Virus genome (UHGV): UHGV-0274194
Source: a virus
Length of the DNA: 6,845 bases
Strand: one strand, 5' to 3'
Position numbers and translations under genes: made by a program. The notes below the pieces were generated by a model, which worked only from the letters and a program-made list of their open reading frames with translations, made no database searches and was not told the DNA's origin. This document shows positions 1-6,845 of this stretch, in pieces; position 1 is the first letter of the stretch; each line of letters begins with the position of its first letter.

Positions 1-30
1 GCGTAATACGGGCGGTAATGGCTTTTTCAT
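1..30 (-). CDS. 5' end of a minus-strand gene (first 10 codons, [10 protein letters not shown]) continuing beyond the window start; product unknown, possibly the primase-side early operon
   Basis: ATG at 30..28 is preceded by GGGGAGGG about 7 nt upstream on the minus strand. Its start overlaps the stop of the 75-aa ORF (ATGA at 27-30). Too little sequence to identify the product. Confidence 0.45.
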   Translation of the reverse strand, partial: MKKPLPPVLR

Positions 31-254
31 ACGTTACCCTCCCCGGTCAGCCACTGCTGATTGCAGCGTTCGACCACGCCGTCGAGCTGGGCGGTCATGA
101 GGTAAATCACGGAGGTGAGCTGTGACTGCTGCACCGGGTCACGACGAACGGTGGCGCAGTCCTGCACCTGCATCAGCTCATTGACGAGCTGGCCGACATT
201 GCGCATATGCTCCAGACATTCGAGGTCACGGGCGGTAATGGTGGTGTGTCTCAT
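27..254 (-). CDS. Hypothetical small protein (75 aa), P4-like early-region ORF
   Basis: ORF with a GGAGG Shine-Dalgarno 7 nt upstream of ATG 254..252. ATGA overlaps with both neighbours (251-254 and 27-30) indicate translational coupling. Composition is protein-like, but I do not recognise the family. Confidence 0.6.
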
Positions 255-445
255 GCGCGCACCTCCGCAACCGGCAGACGGCCAGCAAACGAGAGGACGT
301 AATCGCGAACGAGGGAAAGGCGTGCGGCGTGCTCATCACCGGCAACGGTGCGGAGCATACAAATACGAGGGGTACGGTCTGCGCGACGAACAGCAGCAAA
401 CACAAAGACAAATTGCGGGTGTGACGGGGTGAGGGTCGTAGCCAT
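251..445 (-). CDS. Hypothetical small protein (64 aa, [16 protein letters not shown]...), start chosen at the internal ATG with an SD
   Basis: ATG 445..443 is preceded by GGAGG with 8-nt spacing. Its stop overlaps the next gene's start (ATGA at 251-254). The longer 183-aa frame upstream (to 802) has no SD and an odd P/R/G/F-rich composition. Confidence 0.5.
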
Positions 446-798
446 AGTGGCAACCTCCATTGAGTAGCGGTTATTGCCACCACCGGAGTTCCTACGCTCA
501 TGGGTGGTGACCCGAACGGGGGTAGGAATACCGGCCTCAATGAATACCGGCCAGCCCGAAGGCTGCCCCGCCCGGATCACCATTATCTGACAGGGGCTAA
601 GGTGTAAACACCACAGCCCGAAAAATGGGTGTGCCTGAGCAACGACGTAAAAAAAGACGCATGGCGCGTCCGGTGTCGCCATTGAGTAACTCGGGTTCCT
701 ACGCCCGGCTGCCGATTTTGCGACAGCGGGAAAACTATACCTGGAAACGGCGAAAAGAAGCAAGCCAGAAAAAGGGGCTGTTTGCTGAACGGTCATCA

Positions 799-1065
799 TC
801 ATGCGTCATAGCCCCGGTTACGTTCGGCAATGCGATCCGCCATCCATGCAGTGATTTCAGACTGCGCCCACGCCACATTTTTTCCGCCGAGGGAGATTTG
901 TTTCGGGAAGGCTTCCCGGCTGATGAGGTCGTAAATGGTCGAGCGGGACAGGCCGCACAGATGCATCACTTCGGGCAGACGGATAAAGCGCTCGTGAACG
1001 GTATCAGAAACCGGCATCAGAGGCGCGGCAGGGGCAGAAGACGGGGAAGAAAAAGCAGTGTGCAT
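799..1065 (-). CDS. alpA: AlpA-family phage transcriptional regulator (HTH, Vis/excisionase-like)
   Basis: The 88-aa ORF core ([48 protein letters not shown]) matches the AlpA/MerR-like prophage regulator pattern from memory. ATG 1065 has a GAGGT SD; an alternative start at ATG 1017 would give 72 aa. Confidence 0.8.
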
Positions 1066-1334
1066 CGGGCTACCTCACAAAGTCCATACAGTGCCGGTCG
1101 TGTCCGTCCGGCTTCGGGTAGCTCTCTATTTTGTGAATATTTTCCTTCAGAGCAACAAGTCATTTTGTAGTGCTTCACCATACAACAGAGCGATTTTTGA
1201 ACAATGGCAAATGCTGGCAAACAGATGCAAATCAATGCATTACATTGCAGTAACTTTAAGTACTTTCACTTATATATTTCCTCATAATTAATCGGAAAAA
1301 AGACTAAATCCGACAACCCAGGCAAAAAGCAAAA

Positions 1335-1444
1335 GGTGAACAGTAGTGAACAGTAGGTGAACAGTTATACCCCCAACTATTCACCCTTTATCTTGCTGTA
1401 TTACTTATCTTTTTCTTTTCAGTGAACAGTAGTGAATAGTTATA
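1335..1444. repeat. Cluster of iteron-like direct repeats (G)GTGAACAGTA: three tandem units at 1335-1370, two more at 1422-1444, one inverted partial copy (TATTCACC) at 1377-1385
   Basis: Repeats are directly visible. GGTGAACA is the reverse complement of TGTTCACC, the type I iteron octamer bound by P4 alpha primase at ori/crr (recalled, not searched). Confidence 0.6.
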
Positions 1445-1515
1445 AGTAAAAAAACAAACGGTGAGTAGGGTTTTCCTGAGACCTTTCTCTGGCCAGCCGG
1501 GTTTTAAGGTTTGTT

Positions 1516-1533
1516 TGTACCATTTTTGCCACA
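1516..1533 (+). promoter_or_regulatory. TGT-N12-ACA dyad, candidate Ogr/Delta activator-binding site of the late promoter Psid
   Basis: tTGTaccatttttgccACAa lies 73-90 bp upstream of the sid ATG. The P2/P4 late-promoter consensus is TGT-N12-ACA centred near -55. Confidence 0.5.
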
Positions 1534-1605
1534 ACGGCAATGAATCGTGTTGTTGTGTCCGGCGCGGCAGAATCTCCTCAGATTGAAACGAAGAGGAGAC
1601 CCGAC

Positions 1606-2343
1606 ATGACTCATACCGCTGTTATTCCCGACTACCTTAAACCCGCAATCGAACGGCTTGAGACGGCCAGAGAGGAACATCTCATTAATGCCCGACACAT
1701 GGATGAAACCACGGCGGCCATCAGCCAGGTGAAAGCACAAAAAAAGGAACTGGAGCAGGAAAACGGCAATGATTCCGGCGCATGGCGCGCCGCCTTTCGT
1801 GCCGGTGGTGCTGTCATTACCGATGATCTGAAACAACGCCATCTGGCGCGCGTGGCACGGCGGGAACTGGCGCAGGAATGTGACAGCATGAACGAGGTAC
1901 TATCTTTTGAGTTGGACAGACTCAAAGGAGCCTGTGACCGCACGGCCAGAGCATACCGTCAGGCACATCACGGCGTCCTCAGTCAGTATGCAGAGCATGA
2001 ACTTGATGCATCCCTGCGTGAAAGCTGCGGTGCCCTCATCAGAGCAATGAAACTCAACATACTGGTTCTGAATAATCCACTTGCTAATACGACCGGGCAT
2101 CAGGGATATATCGAACCGGAAAAAGTTGTAATGCAGCAGGTGAAAGCATGGCTTGAACAGGCCGTAAAGGGCTGCAATATCCGTCTGACCGATGAACCGG
2201 TGCTGTTTAAAACAGGGCTGTCGGCTTCCACACTGCCGCATATGGAACATGACGTTGCGACCACGCCCGGTCAGCGAAAAGTCTGGCAGGAAAAAATGTG
2301 GGAACGTGAAGCTGACCTGAAAGCACGGGGGTTATTGTCATGA
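1606..2343 (+). CDS. sid: Sid, capsid size determination (external scaffold) protein
   Basis: 245-aa ORF with an AGGAG SD 8 nt upstream of ATG 1606. Position immediately upstream of, and coupled to, the Ogr/Delta gene, plus a length close to P4 Sid (about 244 aa). The ORF-track start at 1540 lacks an SD. Confidence 0.8.
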   Translation: MTHTAVIPDYLKPAIERLETAREEHLINARHMDETTAAISQVKAQKKELEQENGNDSGAWRAAFRAGGAVITDDLKQRHLARVARRELAQECDSMNEVLSFELDRLKGACDRTARAYRQAHHGVLSQYAEHELDASLRESCGALIRAMKLNILVLNNPLANTTGHQGYIEPEKVVMQQVKAWLEQAVKGCNIRLTDEPVLFKTGLSASTLPHMEHDVATTPGQRKVWQEKMWEREADLKARGLLS

Positions 2344-2585
2344 TGCGCTGCCCTTTCTGCCGCACAGCGGCACACGTTCGCACCAGCCGCTATATGTCTG
2401 ACAGCGTCAAAGAGAGTTACCTACAGTGCCAGAATGTGCACTGCTCGGCGACATTCAAAACGCATGAGTCCATCTTTGAAGTGATACGTTCGCCGGTCGT
2501 CGATGAGAAACCCGCGCCGGTGCCGACAGTCCCCGTGGCACCCCGTCGGGTAAAAGGCTGCTACAGCTCGCCGTTCCGCCATTAA
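2340..2585 (+). CDS. delta: Ogr/Delta-family zinc-finger late transcriptional activator (single-domain, 81 aa)
   Basis: Cys4 motif C4-x2-C7-x22-C30-x4-C35 (CPFC...CQNVHC) exactly fits the Ogr/Delta pattern. The start overlaps the sid stop (ATGA). Confidence 0.85.
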   Translation: MMRCPFCRTAAHVRTSRYMSDSVKESYLQCQNVHCSATFKTHESIFEVIRSPVVDEKPAPVPTVPVAPRRVKGCYSSPFRH

Positions 2586-2601
2586 TCAGGAGAGACAACC
2601 C

Positions 2602-3168
2602 GTGACCACTCTGACCTTACAGCAGGCCTATGACGCCTGTCAGACGAACAAAACCGCGTGGCTGAACCGTAAAACCGAACTGGCCGCCGCAATGCAGGAA
2701 TATCAGGAATTATTGCTGGATGACAATGCATCAGGCTCCCGCAGATTACAGACGCTGCGTGACCTGATTGACGTAAAAAAATGGGAAGTGAATCAGGCCG
2801 CCGGTCGCTACATCTTCTCGCATGAGGAGGTGCAGCGCATCAGCATCCGTAACCGGCTGCATGATTTTATGCAGCAGAACGGCGCAGAGTTGACCGCCGC
2901 ACTGGCACCGGAGCTGATGGGGATTAAAAACCAGCCCGCGATGATAAAGAATCGCGCGCTTGACCGTTCAGTTTCTTACCTGAGAGAAGCTCTTTCCGTC
3001 TGGCTGACCGTTGAAAATGAAATTAATTATTCTGCACAGGATAAAGATATTTTAACGGCCATCGGATACAGGCCTGACGCGCCTTCGCGGGATGATAATC
3101 GTGAAAAATTCACCCCTGCACAGAACATGATTTACACCCGTCGACGTGCCGAACTGGCCGCGCAGTAG
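2602..3168 (+). CDS. psu: Psu, polarity suppression protein (Rho antagonist / capsid decoration)
   Basis: 188-aa ORF with a GTG start preceded by AGGAGA. Length and position after delta match P4 Psu (about 190 aa), and the sequence looks Psu-like from memory. Confidence 0.85.
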   Translation: MTTLTLQQAYDACQTNKTAWLNRKTELAAAMQEYQELLLDDNASGSRRLQTLRDLIDVKKWEVNQAAGRYIFSHEEVQRISIRNRLHDFMQQNGAELTAALAPELMGIKNQPAMIKNRALDRSVSYLREALSVWLTVENEINYSAQDKDILTAIGYRPDAPSRDDNREKFTPAQNMIYTRRRAELAAQ

Positions 3169-3214
3169 CCTGTCAAAAAATCCCCGTAAATCCCGCTATT
3201 TTTAACGAAATAAG

Positions 3215-3241
3215 CCATGCATCCATAAGGTGCATGGTTTT
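3215..3241 (+). terminator. Probable intrinsic terminator of the sid-delta-psu operon
   Basis: 7-bp perfect stem CCATGCA / TGCATGG with a 9-nt loop, followed by TTTT, 47 bp after the psu stop. Confidence 0.5.
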
Positions 3242-3573
3242 GCATGCGTTTTCTCGCTCCGGCATGACAGACCAGCGCCAGTCGTGGCGCGGCCTGAGAC
3301 CACCTTTGCACCTGCATTAAAAGCGGCCCATTAAGCGGGCAGGCGTGGCGGGGAGAGCATTGCGCGCTGGCCTTCTATCTAATAACTTTGGGTTAAAGTA
3401 AGTCACAAGGTCAATGAAAGCTTTGTGAGATACAGATAAGCTATAATTGCTGCGATTGTGAATTAATCAATCGGGATTAGCACCATTTTCTTGTGTAACA
3501 TAAAAATTTCGGTAAACTCATTCTAAAAACTCGTGAAAAAATAATTATAACTCTATTCTTAGGAGGGTGTATT

Positions 3574-4212
3574 GTGTTGAATCCTGATGATTTGGATGAG
3601 GGTGTTTATCCAGATTGCTACTGGAGTTATATAGGGCAAAAGGATTATTTGAAGCCTAACACATACTTACAAGATGCAATTGATGATTTGAATTCAGGAA
3701 GTGAACGCCGAAATATGAATAATGCAGTGCGAAATGCAAAATCGGCATTACATATGAGAGTGGATATTCTTTGTCGAGCTTTTTGTGGCCGCGAATATTT
3801 CCAAAGGAATCTAAGGAACTTTCCAAAAAAGATGGATTTCCTAGAGGGAATTGGAATAGTTAGACCTAGAATAATTGATAAAATAAATAAAATAAGAAAT
3901 GAAATTGAGCACGAGTATCGAGATGCAACTCTTGAGGAAGCAGAGGATTTCATAGATATAGTTTTATTGTTTATGGAAGCAACTAGATATTTAAATTCAA
4001 GGTTTCCATGTGAAGTTGACTTCCATGGATTGGCAGTTTCTGATGAGGTTTATTTAAGGAGAGTAGTATGCAATTGGGAAGGTGGAGAATTACTTTTTTA
4101 CTATTCAAAGCAAGAGTCACGCCGGCTTGATAACGTGCAAACCTACTCAATAAAAGTGGGTGATTATAGATACGCTCGGTGGGTAAAATTCATTCTAGAT
4201 CATTGCGATTGA
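3574..4212 (+). CDS. Cargo protein, 212 aa, putative HEPN-domain RNase (HepT-like RNxxxHxY motif); function unverified
   Basis: GTG start with a strong SD (AGGAGGG, 6-nt spacing). Motif I-R108-N-E-I-E-H113-E-Y115 equals Rx4HxY in a predicted helical context. About 30% GC, far below the flanking core. A perfect TATAAT at 3442-3447 upstream has no good -35. Confidence 0.6.
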   Translation: MLNPDDLDEGVYPDCYWSYIGQKDYLKPNTYLQDAIDDLNSGSERRNMNNAVRNAKSALHMRVDILCRAFCGREYFQRNLRNFPKKMDFLEGIGIVRPRIIDKINKIRNEIEHEYRDATLEEAEDFIDIVLLFMEATRYLNSRFPCEVDFHGLAVSDEVYLRRVVCNWEGGELLFYYSKQESRRLDNVQTYSIKVGDYRYARWVKFILDHCD

Positions 4213-4249
4213 TATACTATTTGTCCTAACTCACTAAAATAAGTATTTT

Positions 4250-4276
4250 AGACCGAGCTAGGCGTAGCCTCGGTCT
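4250..4276. terminator. Hairpin between the convergent cargo genes (candidate bidirectional terminator)
   Basis: 8-bp perfect stem AGACCGAG / CTCGGTCT with an 11-nt loop, sited between the stop of the plus-strand gene (4212) and the stop of the minus-strand gene (4285). The flanking U-tracts are weak. Confidence 0.45.
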
Positions 4277-4284
4277 AAGTGTTA

Positions 4285-5310
4285 TCAATTTGCCAATGCA
4301 GCAACTAATCTTGCTAATTCATTGAAATTACTACTGAATTCTTTTCTGTTTTCTTTCATCGTATCCAGTATTACTCCATTTTGCTCTATTTGTGCATCTG
4401 AGAGGGCGAATACCGGCGTGCTATGTTTTTGAGATTGAGCAATTAGTGAGTTAAAGTCAGAAATATTCGCCAAATTAAAGGGCTCTTTTGAGGGACAGGC
4501 ATTTTCAAAATCAGTAACCGAAATTGACATATTGATAGGATTTAAAGCTGGTATTAATGTATTAGTGACCTCATCTTTGATAATATCAATCCATCTTTGA
4601 AATGATTTTACTGGTAAATTATTTCTTGGACGATACTTCTGAGATATAAATCCGATGAATTTCGGCGGATCAATAGGGAATGGATATAATATTCCACTAT
4701 CTCTAAAGTTATTTATCTCGCTGTTCCATCTAGGAAGAACTTTTGCGAGTGACTTTATTGCCTGAGCACAGAAAAAATCTGGTGATGTAGGAACTATAAA
4801 ATAGTCACTGCACATTAAGAGACATTCATTTAATGCACCAACGCTGGGGCTCATGTCAATAAGGACATAATCAAATTCATGTTTGCGCGCAGTCTCACGC
4901 AAAAAAGCTCCGATGCTGCCGGGGATATTTCTAATTGCGGGAATAGCAGCGCTGGTTGTCAGCGCAACTCCAATCTGTGTTTCAATTTCTGATAAATAGA
5001 TGCTACCACACAATAAACTTAAATTTGGATTTGTTGTGACTAATGGGTCGGATGGTATAACTTTTCCTAAAGAACCATCTACAACAGGTTTGATGCAACT
5101 ATAAATATCACAGTTTGGATTGTTTTTATAGATTTCATCAAAGTCATCAGTGGTCGAATAGCCCAAAGCTAAGGCTGTCAAATTACATTGTGGATCAGCA
5201 TCAACTATTAAAACTTTATAGCCAAGATTAGCTAGCATCCACCCCATGTTAAAAGTCGTGGTTGTCTTACTAACACCACCTTTATGATTAAATAAAGATA
5301 TTATTTTCAT
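4285..5310 (-). CDS. ParA/MinD-like P-loop ATPase (deviant Walker A), 341 aa, with a long C-terminal extension
   Basis: N-terminus FNHKGGVSKTT is a deviant Walker A (KGGxxK[ST]); A' motif VLIVDADPQ; Walker B FDYVLIDMSP. AAGGA SD 7 nt upstream of the ATG. About 36% GC. Confidence 0.8.
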   Translation of the reverse strand: MKIISLFNHKGGVSKTTTTFNMGWMLANLGYKVLIVDADPQCNLTALALGYSTTDDFDEIYKNNPNCDIYSCIKPVVDGSLGKVIPSDPLVTTNPNLSLLCGSIYLSEIETQIGVALTTSAAIPAIRNIPGSIGAFLRETARKHEFDYVLIDMSPSVGALNECLLMCSDYFIVPTSPDFFCAQAIKSLAKVLPRWNSEINNFRDSGILYPFPIDPPKFIGFISQKYRPRNNLPVKSFQRWIDIIKDEVTNTLIPALNPINMSISVTDFENACPSKEPFNLANISDFNSLIAQSQKHSTPVFALSDAQIEQNGVILDTMKENRKEFSSNFNELARLVAALAN

Positions 5311-5332
5311 TCGAAATCCTTAATAGAAATTA

Positions 5333-6499
5333 TTACTTTAAAAGATAGTTGCTATACCACTGAAGCATTTCCCTTCTTCTTTCAAGGTATTGAGCATGAT
5401 TATATGTTCCTCGAATACTATTCTTATCAACATGAGCAAGTTGCAACTCAATCCATGCACTATCAAACCCTTGTTCATGCAATATTGTCGACATTGTATG
5501 TCTGAAACCGTGACCTGTAGCACGACCTTTATAACCCAGTAGTTCAATTACTTGCGACACACTCTCCTTAGATATTGGTTTGTTACGGTTGTTTCGCCCA
5601 ATAAAAATGTAAGGATAGTGTCTTGTAATAGGTTTTAGTTGGTTAAAAAGATCAACGACTTGTGTTGATAGAGGGATAATATGGGGTCTGCGCATTTTCA
5701 TTCGTTCTGCGGGGATTTCCCATAAACCTCTCTCAAGGTCAACCTCATCCCATGCTGCAAAGCGCATCTCTTGAGTTCTCACACCGGTGAGCATAACTAT
5801 CTTTGTTGCATTTTTCGTTATGATGCTACCGGTATACGCTTCGAGATCCTGAATAAAATGAGGCAATTCTTCGGCAGATAGAAATGGATGATGTTTTTGT
5901 TTAGGAACGGCCAGAGCGATGGCTAAATCAGGCGCAGGATTGTATTCAGCGCGGCCAGTTATGATTGCGTAGCGATAAACCTCACCGCACCTCTGACGCA
6001 CCTTACGTGTTTTCTCTAGTGCCCCACGCTTCTCTATTCGTCGCAATACTTCAAGCAGTTCTAACGGTTTGATTTCACTGATAGGGCGTTTACCAATGAA
6101 CGGGAACACATCTTGCTCAAATGTCTTAATGATTTCTTCGCGATAGGCCACTGTCCAGCGGTCAGCTTTGTTAGTGTACCATTCTCGACATATGGTTTCG
6201 AATGAGTTCTCTGTTGAGAGTTGCTGTGCCAGTTTTTGGGCTTTACGTTCTCCCACTGGGTCTATGCCGTTTGCTACCTGCTTACGAGCGGTATCGCGTT
6301 TCTCACGTGCTTCTGCGAGGCTCACAAGGTTGTAGCTGCCAAATGACATTAGCCGTGCTTTACCGGCAAAACGAAAGCGGAAGCGCCAGCCCTTTGAGCC
6401 GTCTGGATTGATGAGTAATGACAGGCCTTGTCCATCGTTCAGTGTGTAGGGTTTGTTTTGGGGCTTTGCTCGTTTAATTTGTATATCTGTTAGTGGCAT
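5333..6499 (-). CDS. int: P4-type tyrosine site-specific integrase (selC-targeting family)
   Basis: 388 aa. The N-terminal arm-binding region ([24 protein letters not shown]) is typical of P4-like integrases, and catalytic-core motifs are present (R in GVRTQEMR, HxxR in GHGFRHT, LAHV, Y in RGTYNHAQY). It is adjacent to and co-oriented with the tRNA 3' end. Confidence 0.9.
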   Translation of the reverse strand: MPLTDIQIKRAKPQNKPYTLNDGQGLSLLINPDGSKGWRFRFRFAGKARLMSFGSYNLVSLAEAREKRDTARKQVANGIDPVGERKAQKLAQQLSTENSFETICREWYTNKADRWTVAYREEIIKTFEQDVFPFIGKRPISEIKPLELLEVLRRIEKRGALEKTRKVRQRCGEVYRYAIITGRAEYNPAPDLAIALAVPKQKHHPFLSAEELPHFIQDLEAYTGSIITKNATKIVMLTGVRTQEMRFAAWDEVDLERGLWEIPAERMKMRRPHIIPLSTQVVDLFNQLKPITRHYPYIFIGRNNRNKPISKESVSQVIELLGYKGRATGHGFRHTMSTILHEQGFDSAWIELQLAHVDKNSIRGTYNHAQYLERRREMLQWYSNYLLK

Positions 6500-6550
6500 G
6501 TGTATAAGTCAAAAGTGTGTATAAAAAATCTATACACATCACTATACATA
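6500..6550. promoter_or_regulatory. int upstream region with palindrome TGTGTATA-N7-TATACACA (6516-6538) and extra GTGTATA / TATACA copies; candidate operator or integrase arm sites
   Basis: Perfect 8-bp inverted repeat with a 7-bp spacer. Another GTGTATA sits at 6500-6506 abutting the int start codon, and ACTATACATA at 6541-6550. Confidence 0.4.
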
Positions 6551-6660
6551 TTTTTCATGGATTCAGGGAGAGCTTGTCGGACGGTTACGGATGAGCGATT
6601 TACTATATGCTTTGAAAATAAAGGATTTTTAGACTTTCTCGGATGGTGACGGAGGAATTT

Positions 6661-6728
6661 TGGCGGAAGATCACAGGAGTCGAACCTGCCCGGGACCGCT
6701 GGCGGCCCCAACTGGATTTGAAGTCCAG
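6661..6728 (-). tRNA. selC: Truncated tRNA-Sec (selC): the 3' 68 nt only (anticodon arm with UCA, long variable arm, T arm, 3' acceptor strand with GCCA); the 5' acceptor strand and D arm are missing
   Basis: The reverse complement CTGGACTTCAAATCCAGTTGGGGCCGCCAGCGGTCCCGGGCAGGTTCGACTCCTGTGATCTTCCGCCA matches the 3' portion of E. coli selC as recalled. The TCA anticodon and long extra arm are visible. The match stops abruptly at 6728. Confidence 0.8.
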
Positions 6729-6845
6729 AACGATGGACAAGGCCTGTCATTACTCATCAATCCAGACGGCTCAAAGGGCTGGCGCTTCCGCTTTCGTTTT
6801 GCCGGTAAAGCACGGCTAATGTCATTTGGCAGCTACAACCTTGTG
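6729..6845 (+). repeat. Perfect inverted duplicate of int codons 21-59 (partner arm 6323..6439), fused to the truncated selC and running off the window; possibly the 5'-truncated start of a second, oppositely oriented integrase
   Basis: Manual base-by-base reverse-complement comparison of 6323-6439 with 6729-6845 gives 117/117 identity. It translates on the plus strand as [39 protein letters not shown], with no in-frame start codon upstream. Confidence 0.9.

Follow-up and report, generated by a model that had tools for sequence, protein, structure and literature searches.

Results

A P4-like satellite prophage beside selC

The window, by which we mean the whole stretch of 6,845 nucleotides analysed here (UHGV virus genome UHGV-0274194), carries the right-hand part of a P4-like satellite prophage with its integrase gene, followed by a fragment of the tRNA-Sec gene selC and, at its right end, by an inverted copy of part of the integrase gene. 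The features are as follows.

1..6660, right-hand part (about 6.7 kb) of a P4-like satellite prophage, based on Rfam, identity to P4 and near-identical loci
5333..6499, minus strand, complete tyrosine integrase gene (int), 388 aa, from the open reading frame list; the sole full int copy
6323..6440, minus strand, native arm on the left side of the inverted repeat: third base of int codon 20 and codons 21-59; collinear with all reference loci
6441..6727, spacer of 287 nt that retains the native order and comprises int codons 1-20, the intergenic region of 161 nt between int and selC, and the greater part of the selC 3' fragment
6661..6728, minus strand, selC 3' fragment, tRNA-Sec nt 28-95, identical to E. 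coli selC over 68 nt, up to 6728
6661..6680, minus strand, att core, formed by the last 20 nt of selC; no other part of selC is repeated at the satellite's far end in the references
6712..6728, anticodon hairpin CTGGA-TTTGAAG-TCCAG, with the join falling on its last base
6728..6729, non-native join between selC nt 28 and the reverse-complemented int codon 20/21, the two sides sharing a microhomology of 1 nt
6728..6845, plus strand, right arm, inverted copy of 6323-6440, ending on the window's last base

The gene content of the satellite, for which the gene layout and the Pfam families were taken from near-identical loci, comprises an Icd/Ash-like gene, AlpA, the C4/CI RNA, isrK, a sid-like gene, ogr/delta, psu, an unknown 212-aa protein, a ParA-like ATPase and int. 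The region 260-3340 is about 72% identical to the sid-delta-psu-cI region of phage P4. The hallmarks by which such satellites are recognised, namely a sid/delta/psu module, a CI (C4) RNA, a tyrosine integrase beside a tRNA gene and short att direct repeats, were all seen. P4-like satellites reside at tRNA genes, as do phage P4 at leuX and the selC islands with P4-type integrases, and the window outside the join is typical of them; judged from its sequence, this part is to be classed as an ordinary P4-like satellite prophage at selC and presents nothing new. The Pfam domains of the integrase (Arm-DNA-bind_3, Phage_int_M, and Phage_integrase) were all above cutoff, and the exact protein is widespread, being present in 1,413 index blocks of a public collection, from which 26 contigs were read.

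The Rfam search also identified, each at full length and on the minus strand, a C4 antisense RNA, which is the P4 CI-type immunity RNA, at 500-587 (81.3 bits) and the Hfq-binding sRNA isrK at 650-727 (70.9 bits). These two RNAs lie side by side and overlap the Icd/Ash-like ORF at 251-802 (minus strand). The ORF at 1540-2343, as listed, encodes 267 aa, a protein for which the exact look-up returned no record, and the gene called there in the references encodes 245 aa from a different start. The slot between psu and int is occupied by a gene for a ParA/AAA_31-type ATPase at 4285-5310 (minus strand) and the gene for the 212-aa protein at 3574-4212 (plus strand); the annotations of other selC satellites show SIR2, Sll1717 P-loop ATPase or AAA-like genes in this position. 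The 212-aa protein had no Pfam family above threshold, with HEPN_RiboL-PSP being the best match at 17.9 bits against a cutoff of 28.4, and the only PADLOC match was one to PDC-M28B that was limited to the P-loop. The ATPase and the 212-aa protein may represent an uncharacterised cargo pair in the variable slot of the satellite.

At the other end, the window begins about 43 nt inside a DUF5375-primase block that is 81% identical to an M10-type satellite; the reference sequence compared to the left of the window was 16457-19200 of the locus L012. This block is present in 87 of 5,426 E. coli genomes, at a median of one place in each. A repeat-induced contig break at the left end was considered and found to be unsupported, as the region is single-copy in nearly all of the genomes that have it.

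Geometry of the inverted repeat

A repeat search and a string comparison indicated that the arms of the inverted repeat, 6323-6440 and 6728-6845, are 118 nt long and 100% complementary, with a spacer of 287 nt between them, 6728-6845 being the exact reverse complement of 6323-6440 and the end of the right arm being the final base of the window, 6845. The runner-up inverted repeat within the window is merely 24 nt long at 75%, and chance can therefore be ruled out for the 118-nt repeat. The left arm consists of the third base of int codon 20 and codons 21-59, and the plus-strand translation of 6729-6845 (NDGQG...SYNLV) is identical to Int residues 21-59. The base G6728 is common to selC and the inverted int copy and represents a microhomology of 1 nt, the adjacent base being mismatched. 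The two joined segments come from one locus and from opposite strands, 288 nt apart, and meet at the end of the sequence, with the native order being retained up to the join; the spacer (6441-6727) is 100% identical to closed genomes.

The preliminary description had reported a perfect inverted duplication of at least 117 bp of the 5' coding region of the integrase gene, covering int codons 21-59 and running to the window edge. The measurements bear this out, as do the translation of 6729-6845 and the end of the right arm at 6845, and the length is 118 instead of 117 nt because the base G6728 is shared by selC and the inverted int copy. The figure of at least 117 bp is uninformative on the biological extent of the duplication, because the arm stops where the sequence stops.

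Truncation of selC at the join

The selC 3' fragment contains the anticodon stem-loop, the long variable arm, the T arm, the 3' acceptor strand and CCA, and sequence comparison indicated that the window departs from E. coli selC at 6729. The E. coli selC query was confirmed against the selC of the loci L004 and L012. The join cuts the gene after tRNA nt 28, 68 nt from the 3' end, and 27 nt are missing. ARAGORN called a 93-nt tRNA-SeC at 6665-6757 (minus strand), spanning the join, in which the 5' third is integrase sequence and unpaired. In the Rfam search of the window, no tRNA-Sec match was obtained at the gathering threshold, the score for tRNA-Sec (RF01852) being 44.3 bits versus a gathering score of 47, with the acceptor and D-stem pairs broken or non-canonical and the match good only from the anticodon stem onward. 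Because of this sub-gathering score with the broken acceptor and D-stem pairs, the selC copy of the window as written is to be regarded as truncated and defective, and not as a functional tRNA-Sec gene.

The join also coincides with the final base of the anticodon hairpin, and only 0.8% of the window positions occupy such a place in a hairpin of this kind. Self-priming at this hairpin was considered as a separate candidate and rejected, as it predicts TTGGGGCC after 6728 and the window has AACGATGG.

Distance between the join and the att core

Each of the near-identical references L003, L004, L006, and L012 contains two copies of the last 20 nt of selC (e.g., at 9820 and 19436 in L012), which lie about 9.6 kb apart, and a single copy of the last 22 nt. 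The join is located about 48 nt beyond this att repeat, deeper into the tRNA gene. As the att core is 6661-6680 and the join lies about 48 nt further in, the join is not what the integrase would be expected to produce, and the general habit of P4-like satellites of residing at tRNA genes leaves it unexplained, as it lies outside the att core. The idea that the join represents the edge of a selC att identity of about 68 nt was rejected, as the att repeat is only 20 nt long. At the two breakpoints, we found no flanking inverted repeats and no similarity in either orientation, and they share 1 nt. Thus, with the join off the att repeat, with microhomology of 1 nt and with no inverted repeats at the breakpoints, neither an integrase nor an invertase would explain it.

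The preliminary description had placed the junction inside the tRNA body, about 68 nt from the 3' end and not at the att core, had concluded that it was not a simple attL/attR product, and had called the visible selC copy non-functional. The selC match of exactly 68 nt and the att repeat confined to the last 20 nt of selC confirm the first two of these statements, and the third agrees with the Rfam result (44.3 versus 47 bits) for the copy as written.

Comparison with other assemblies

Positions 1-6728 of the window are collinear from end to end with L003 (CP055588.1), L004, L006, and L012 at 99.91-99.97% identity, with 2-6 differences, and in all four loci, 6728 is followed by the 27 nt of selC that the window lacks and then by the yicJ side. 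After 6728, the references read CCGCCTCACC... (selC nt 27 to 1), whereas the window reads AACGATGG..., which is the reverse complement from 6440 downward. The full reference continuation past 6728 is CCGCCTCACCGGAGACGACGATCTTCC, with two substitutions in L003, which was checked directly.

An alignment with closed E. coli genomes at selC, which the preliminary description had put forward as a check, was run with the window region 5300-6845 as the query. As a result, 470 of 5,426 complete E. coli genomes covered at least 80% of the query, and four were 100% identical up to 6728; no alignment in any of the 5,426 extended beyond query position 1429 (window position 6728), and none of these genomes crosses the join. 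In the ten places obtained from the exact integrase look-up, int was followed by intact selC and then yicJ (10/10), and the annotated tRNA-Sec in M10 and 401651 is 95 nt long and is likewise followed by yicJ. A 32-mer spanning the junction was missing from the 12 fetched loci. A junction 29-mer was not found in the genome, viral, and metagenome collections, with the genome and metagenome scans being run without a positive control, and the reciprocal inversion junction was not found in three collections by scans of low power. The viral collection does not contain even the native int sequence, so that its negatives are uninformative, and the species-representative collection holds one genome per species, which lowers the power of negative scans. 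The exact protein look-up for the junction-spanning ORF of 86 aa returned no record, and the matches to other proteins of the window, none of which is unique to it, were confined to long reference contigs.

Several further differences among the loci were observed. At position 3376, in the intergenic region from psu to the gene for the 212-aa protein, the window has T and L003, L004, and L012 have C, this being the sole difference shared against all three. The selC of L003 differs at a few bases. In 401651 (L002, NZ_CM129040.1), the same int is split by an IS3-family insertion at 6034-8461, corresponding to about 5890 of the window, and the adjoining selC is intact. L003 and L006 (CP055588.1 and CP066115.1) carry at 1-5500 a PTS / fructose-bisphosphate aldolase / lyxose isomerase cluster beyond yicI, and other hosts have yicH-xanP-gltS-recG beyond yicI. 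The host flanks thus differ beyond yicI, and the same satellite therefore occupies different chromosomal backgrounds.

Discussion

The join joins two segments of one locus in opposite orientation at the end of the sequence, it carries no recombination signatures, and the locus is intact in every comparable assembly. With a probability of roughly 80%, we interpret the join at 6728/6729 as a fold-back chimera that was captured at a contig end, that is, as an artefact of library preparation or assembly that does not belong to the genome of the organism. We infer that the join arose in vitro and that the right end of the window is a contig end, and the organism most probably has a normal selC and a single integrase. 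The preliminary description had offered two alternatives, and the one favoured here is that of a chimeric or palindromic assembly artefact; the other, a second integrase resulting from tandem or inverted islands or from an inversion between int copies, is unsupported, as a single int together with intact selC and yicJ was seen in every comparable assembly and the breakpoints have no inverted repeats and share 1 nt.

The process could be envisaged as follows. A fold-back molecule, i.e., an inverted chimera of sequences from the same locus, would arise during DNA amplification or library preparation, and the assembler would use this molecule to extend a contig end. The true sequence would be that of the P4-like satellite prophage followed by intact selC and then yicJ; at selC nt 28, the assembled path would leave it and run down the opposite strand from int codon 20. 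The path would stop after 118 nt, either because any further extension would only repeat what the contig contains or because the end of the supporting read is reached. The assembler would prefer this chimeric path only if the native continuation was missing or had been pruned. A physical chimeric molecule would be required, because a misjoin made in the assembly graph alone depends on a (k-1)-mer common to both sides, and the two sides of this join have only 1 nt in common. Unitigs can be misjoined at coverage gaps even from error-free reads (Rahman and Medvedev, PMC9528984), and such a graph-only misjoin at low coverage, an 'unsafe unitig' (PMC9528984), was rejected as a candidate for the same reason.

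With respect to the length of the arm, the window matches the beginning of the fold-back path exactly, and a canonical k-mer walk along that path at k=119 halts at 6845, leaving a terminal inverted repeat of k-1 = 118 nt, although this does not identify the assembler. The arm length therefore looks as if it had been set by the software or by the end of the supporting read and not by biology. The overlaps at contig ends differ by assembler, being maxK for MEGAHIT and metaSPAdes and maxK-1 for IDBA_UD (COBRA, PMC10914622), and a strict unitig would also break at 6440, a node with two right-hand neighbours; for these reasons, the fit at k=119 is only a consistency and indicates no particular assembler. 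The derivation of the 118-nt arm from the MEGAHIT default of k=119 was rejected, as COBRA gives maxK overlaps for MEGAHIT and 118 fits k-1 only. Against the chimera stands the location of the join on the last base of the anticodon hairpin, which as a 0.8% class is unexplained by the fold-back model and gives some plausibility to an event that depends on structure, be it in vitro or in vivo.

Inverted chimeric molecules are well documented. Of 475 chimeras obtained by multiple displacement amplification (MDA) of a single E. coli cell, 85% connected inverted segments with a deletion of the part between them (PMC1855051), the joined sequences were less than 10 kb apart in 337 of 406 inverted chimeras (Lasken & Stockwell 2007, PMC1855051), and 93.5% of the proximal ones had complementarity of at least 2 bp at the junction (PMC1855051). 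Inverted chimeric reads consisting of a strand and its inverted complement have been described from both sonication and enzymatic libraries (PMC10908179), and fold-backs account for about 0.55-0.6% of ONT gDNA reads and about 15% of split reads (PMC12870357). The join resembles these molecules (PMC1855051, PMC10908179, PMC12870357) in that it connects sequences of one locus that lie on opposite strands at a distance of a few hundred bases, with the intervening part skipped, in that there is no recombinase signature, and in its location at the end of the assembled sequence. There are also differences. [quoted passage not shown] In comparison with de Bruijn contig ends, which overlap by k or k-1 (PMC10914622, PMC9528984), the terminal 118 nt similarly duplicate the contig in reversed form, but de Bruijn contig ends overlap another contig, whereas the overlap here is with the contig itself and in reverse.

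The explanations by which the join would be a product of recombination have to be weighed against a fold-back chimera. An integrase-mediated product would consist of tandem or inverted P4-like islands at selC, or of recombination between int copies or att sites, such that a second int faces the first; it is in line with selC being a hotspot for islands with P4-type integrases, many different islands occupying it according to annotations, and with the inverted segment being integrase coding sequence. However, the join lies 48 nt further in than the att repeat, which is confined to the last 20 nt of selC, the inverted copy begins at int codon 21 and adjoins neither an int promoter nor a 5' end nor att sequence, its 118 nt are 100% identical to the resident int and not to the diverged int of a second island, and none of the 5,426 complete E. 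coli genomes has inverted int copies joined in this way. We consider such a product extremely improbable, and the position of the join relative to the att core appears effectively to refute it. There is also hardly any likelihood that a site-specific invertible switch accounts for the join, in which case a segment of about 288 bp with the int promoter and start would flip in the manner of fimS or hin, with both states being assembled. The segment, at 289 bp, is within the size range of known invertible promoters, the gene of a tyrosine recombinase adjoins it, and the join equals one inversion junction; nevertheless, a switch needs bounding inverted repeats, and here 1 nt is shared and there is no similarity in either orientation, one breakpoint is within a tRNA gene and the other within the int reading frame, and the low-power scans of three collections did not find the reciprocal junction.

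A genuine rearrangement deserves more consideration, although we judge it unlikely. It would be an inverted duplication of the fold-back or tandem-inversion-duplication type, or an inversion of 6440-6728 in a subpopulation, arising by illegitimate recombination or replication template switching, with the result that the truncated selC abuts a second int copy that is inverted and lacks its 5' part. The join was present in at least one sequenced molecule, given that sharing of 1 nt rules out a pure graph artefact, and the assembler took it over the native path; it is one of the two junctions expected from inverting 6440-6728; its breakpoint is at the hairpin base (0.8% class), where replication could stall; and a de Bruijn assembler, by collapsing a real inverted repeat, would produce an identical contig. 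A pure inversion is excluded, however, because the window keeps the native 6440/6441 junction, so that a duplication or a mixed population and a second, unseen junction would be needed. The join was seen neither in the 5,426 complete E. coli genomes nor in the ten loci with an identical integrase, and the scans of three collections, weak in power, did not yield the reciprocal junction. Moreover, E. coli rarely carries long perfect inverted duplications, which are unstable in it, whereas chimeric reads occur in every library; this weighs against a genuine rearrangement. Tandem inversion duplications and fold-back inversions do arise in vivo, by snap-back or template switching in Salmonella and E. 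coli, and are accompanied by a second junction and a raised copy number, usually under selection for amplification. The join is similar to them in being inverted, in having little or no homology and in having arms with a short unique spacer, but nothing here indicates a second junction or a raised copy number, and related genomes do not have the join. In particular, it seems rather doubtful that a natural Escherichia strain or subpopulation carries a fold-back duplication whose starting point was the base of the selC anticodon hairpin and which was re-primed inside the int of the satellite.

The biological importance of the join is small, and its importance for data hygiene is moderate. The sequence as deposited would lead to wrong calls, namely a broken or chimeric tRNA-Sec gene, a partial second integrase and possibly an 'inverted terminal repeat', and automatic annotation would carry a false tRNA gene across the join, as in the 93-nt gene already called by ARAGORN. 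Scans for unusual repeats should discount perfect inverted self-overlaps that run up to a sequence end. A real join would represent an isolated rearrangement junction of modest interest, with selenoprotein synthesis being lost. If a fold-back duplication were true, selC would be destroyed and a palindromic structure would be formed around the int promoter, and this would be a case of natural hairpin-associated template switching at a tRNA gene beside a mobile element.
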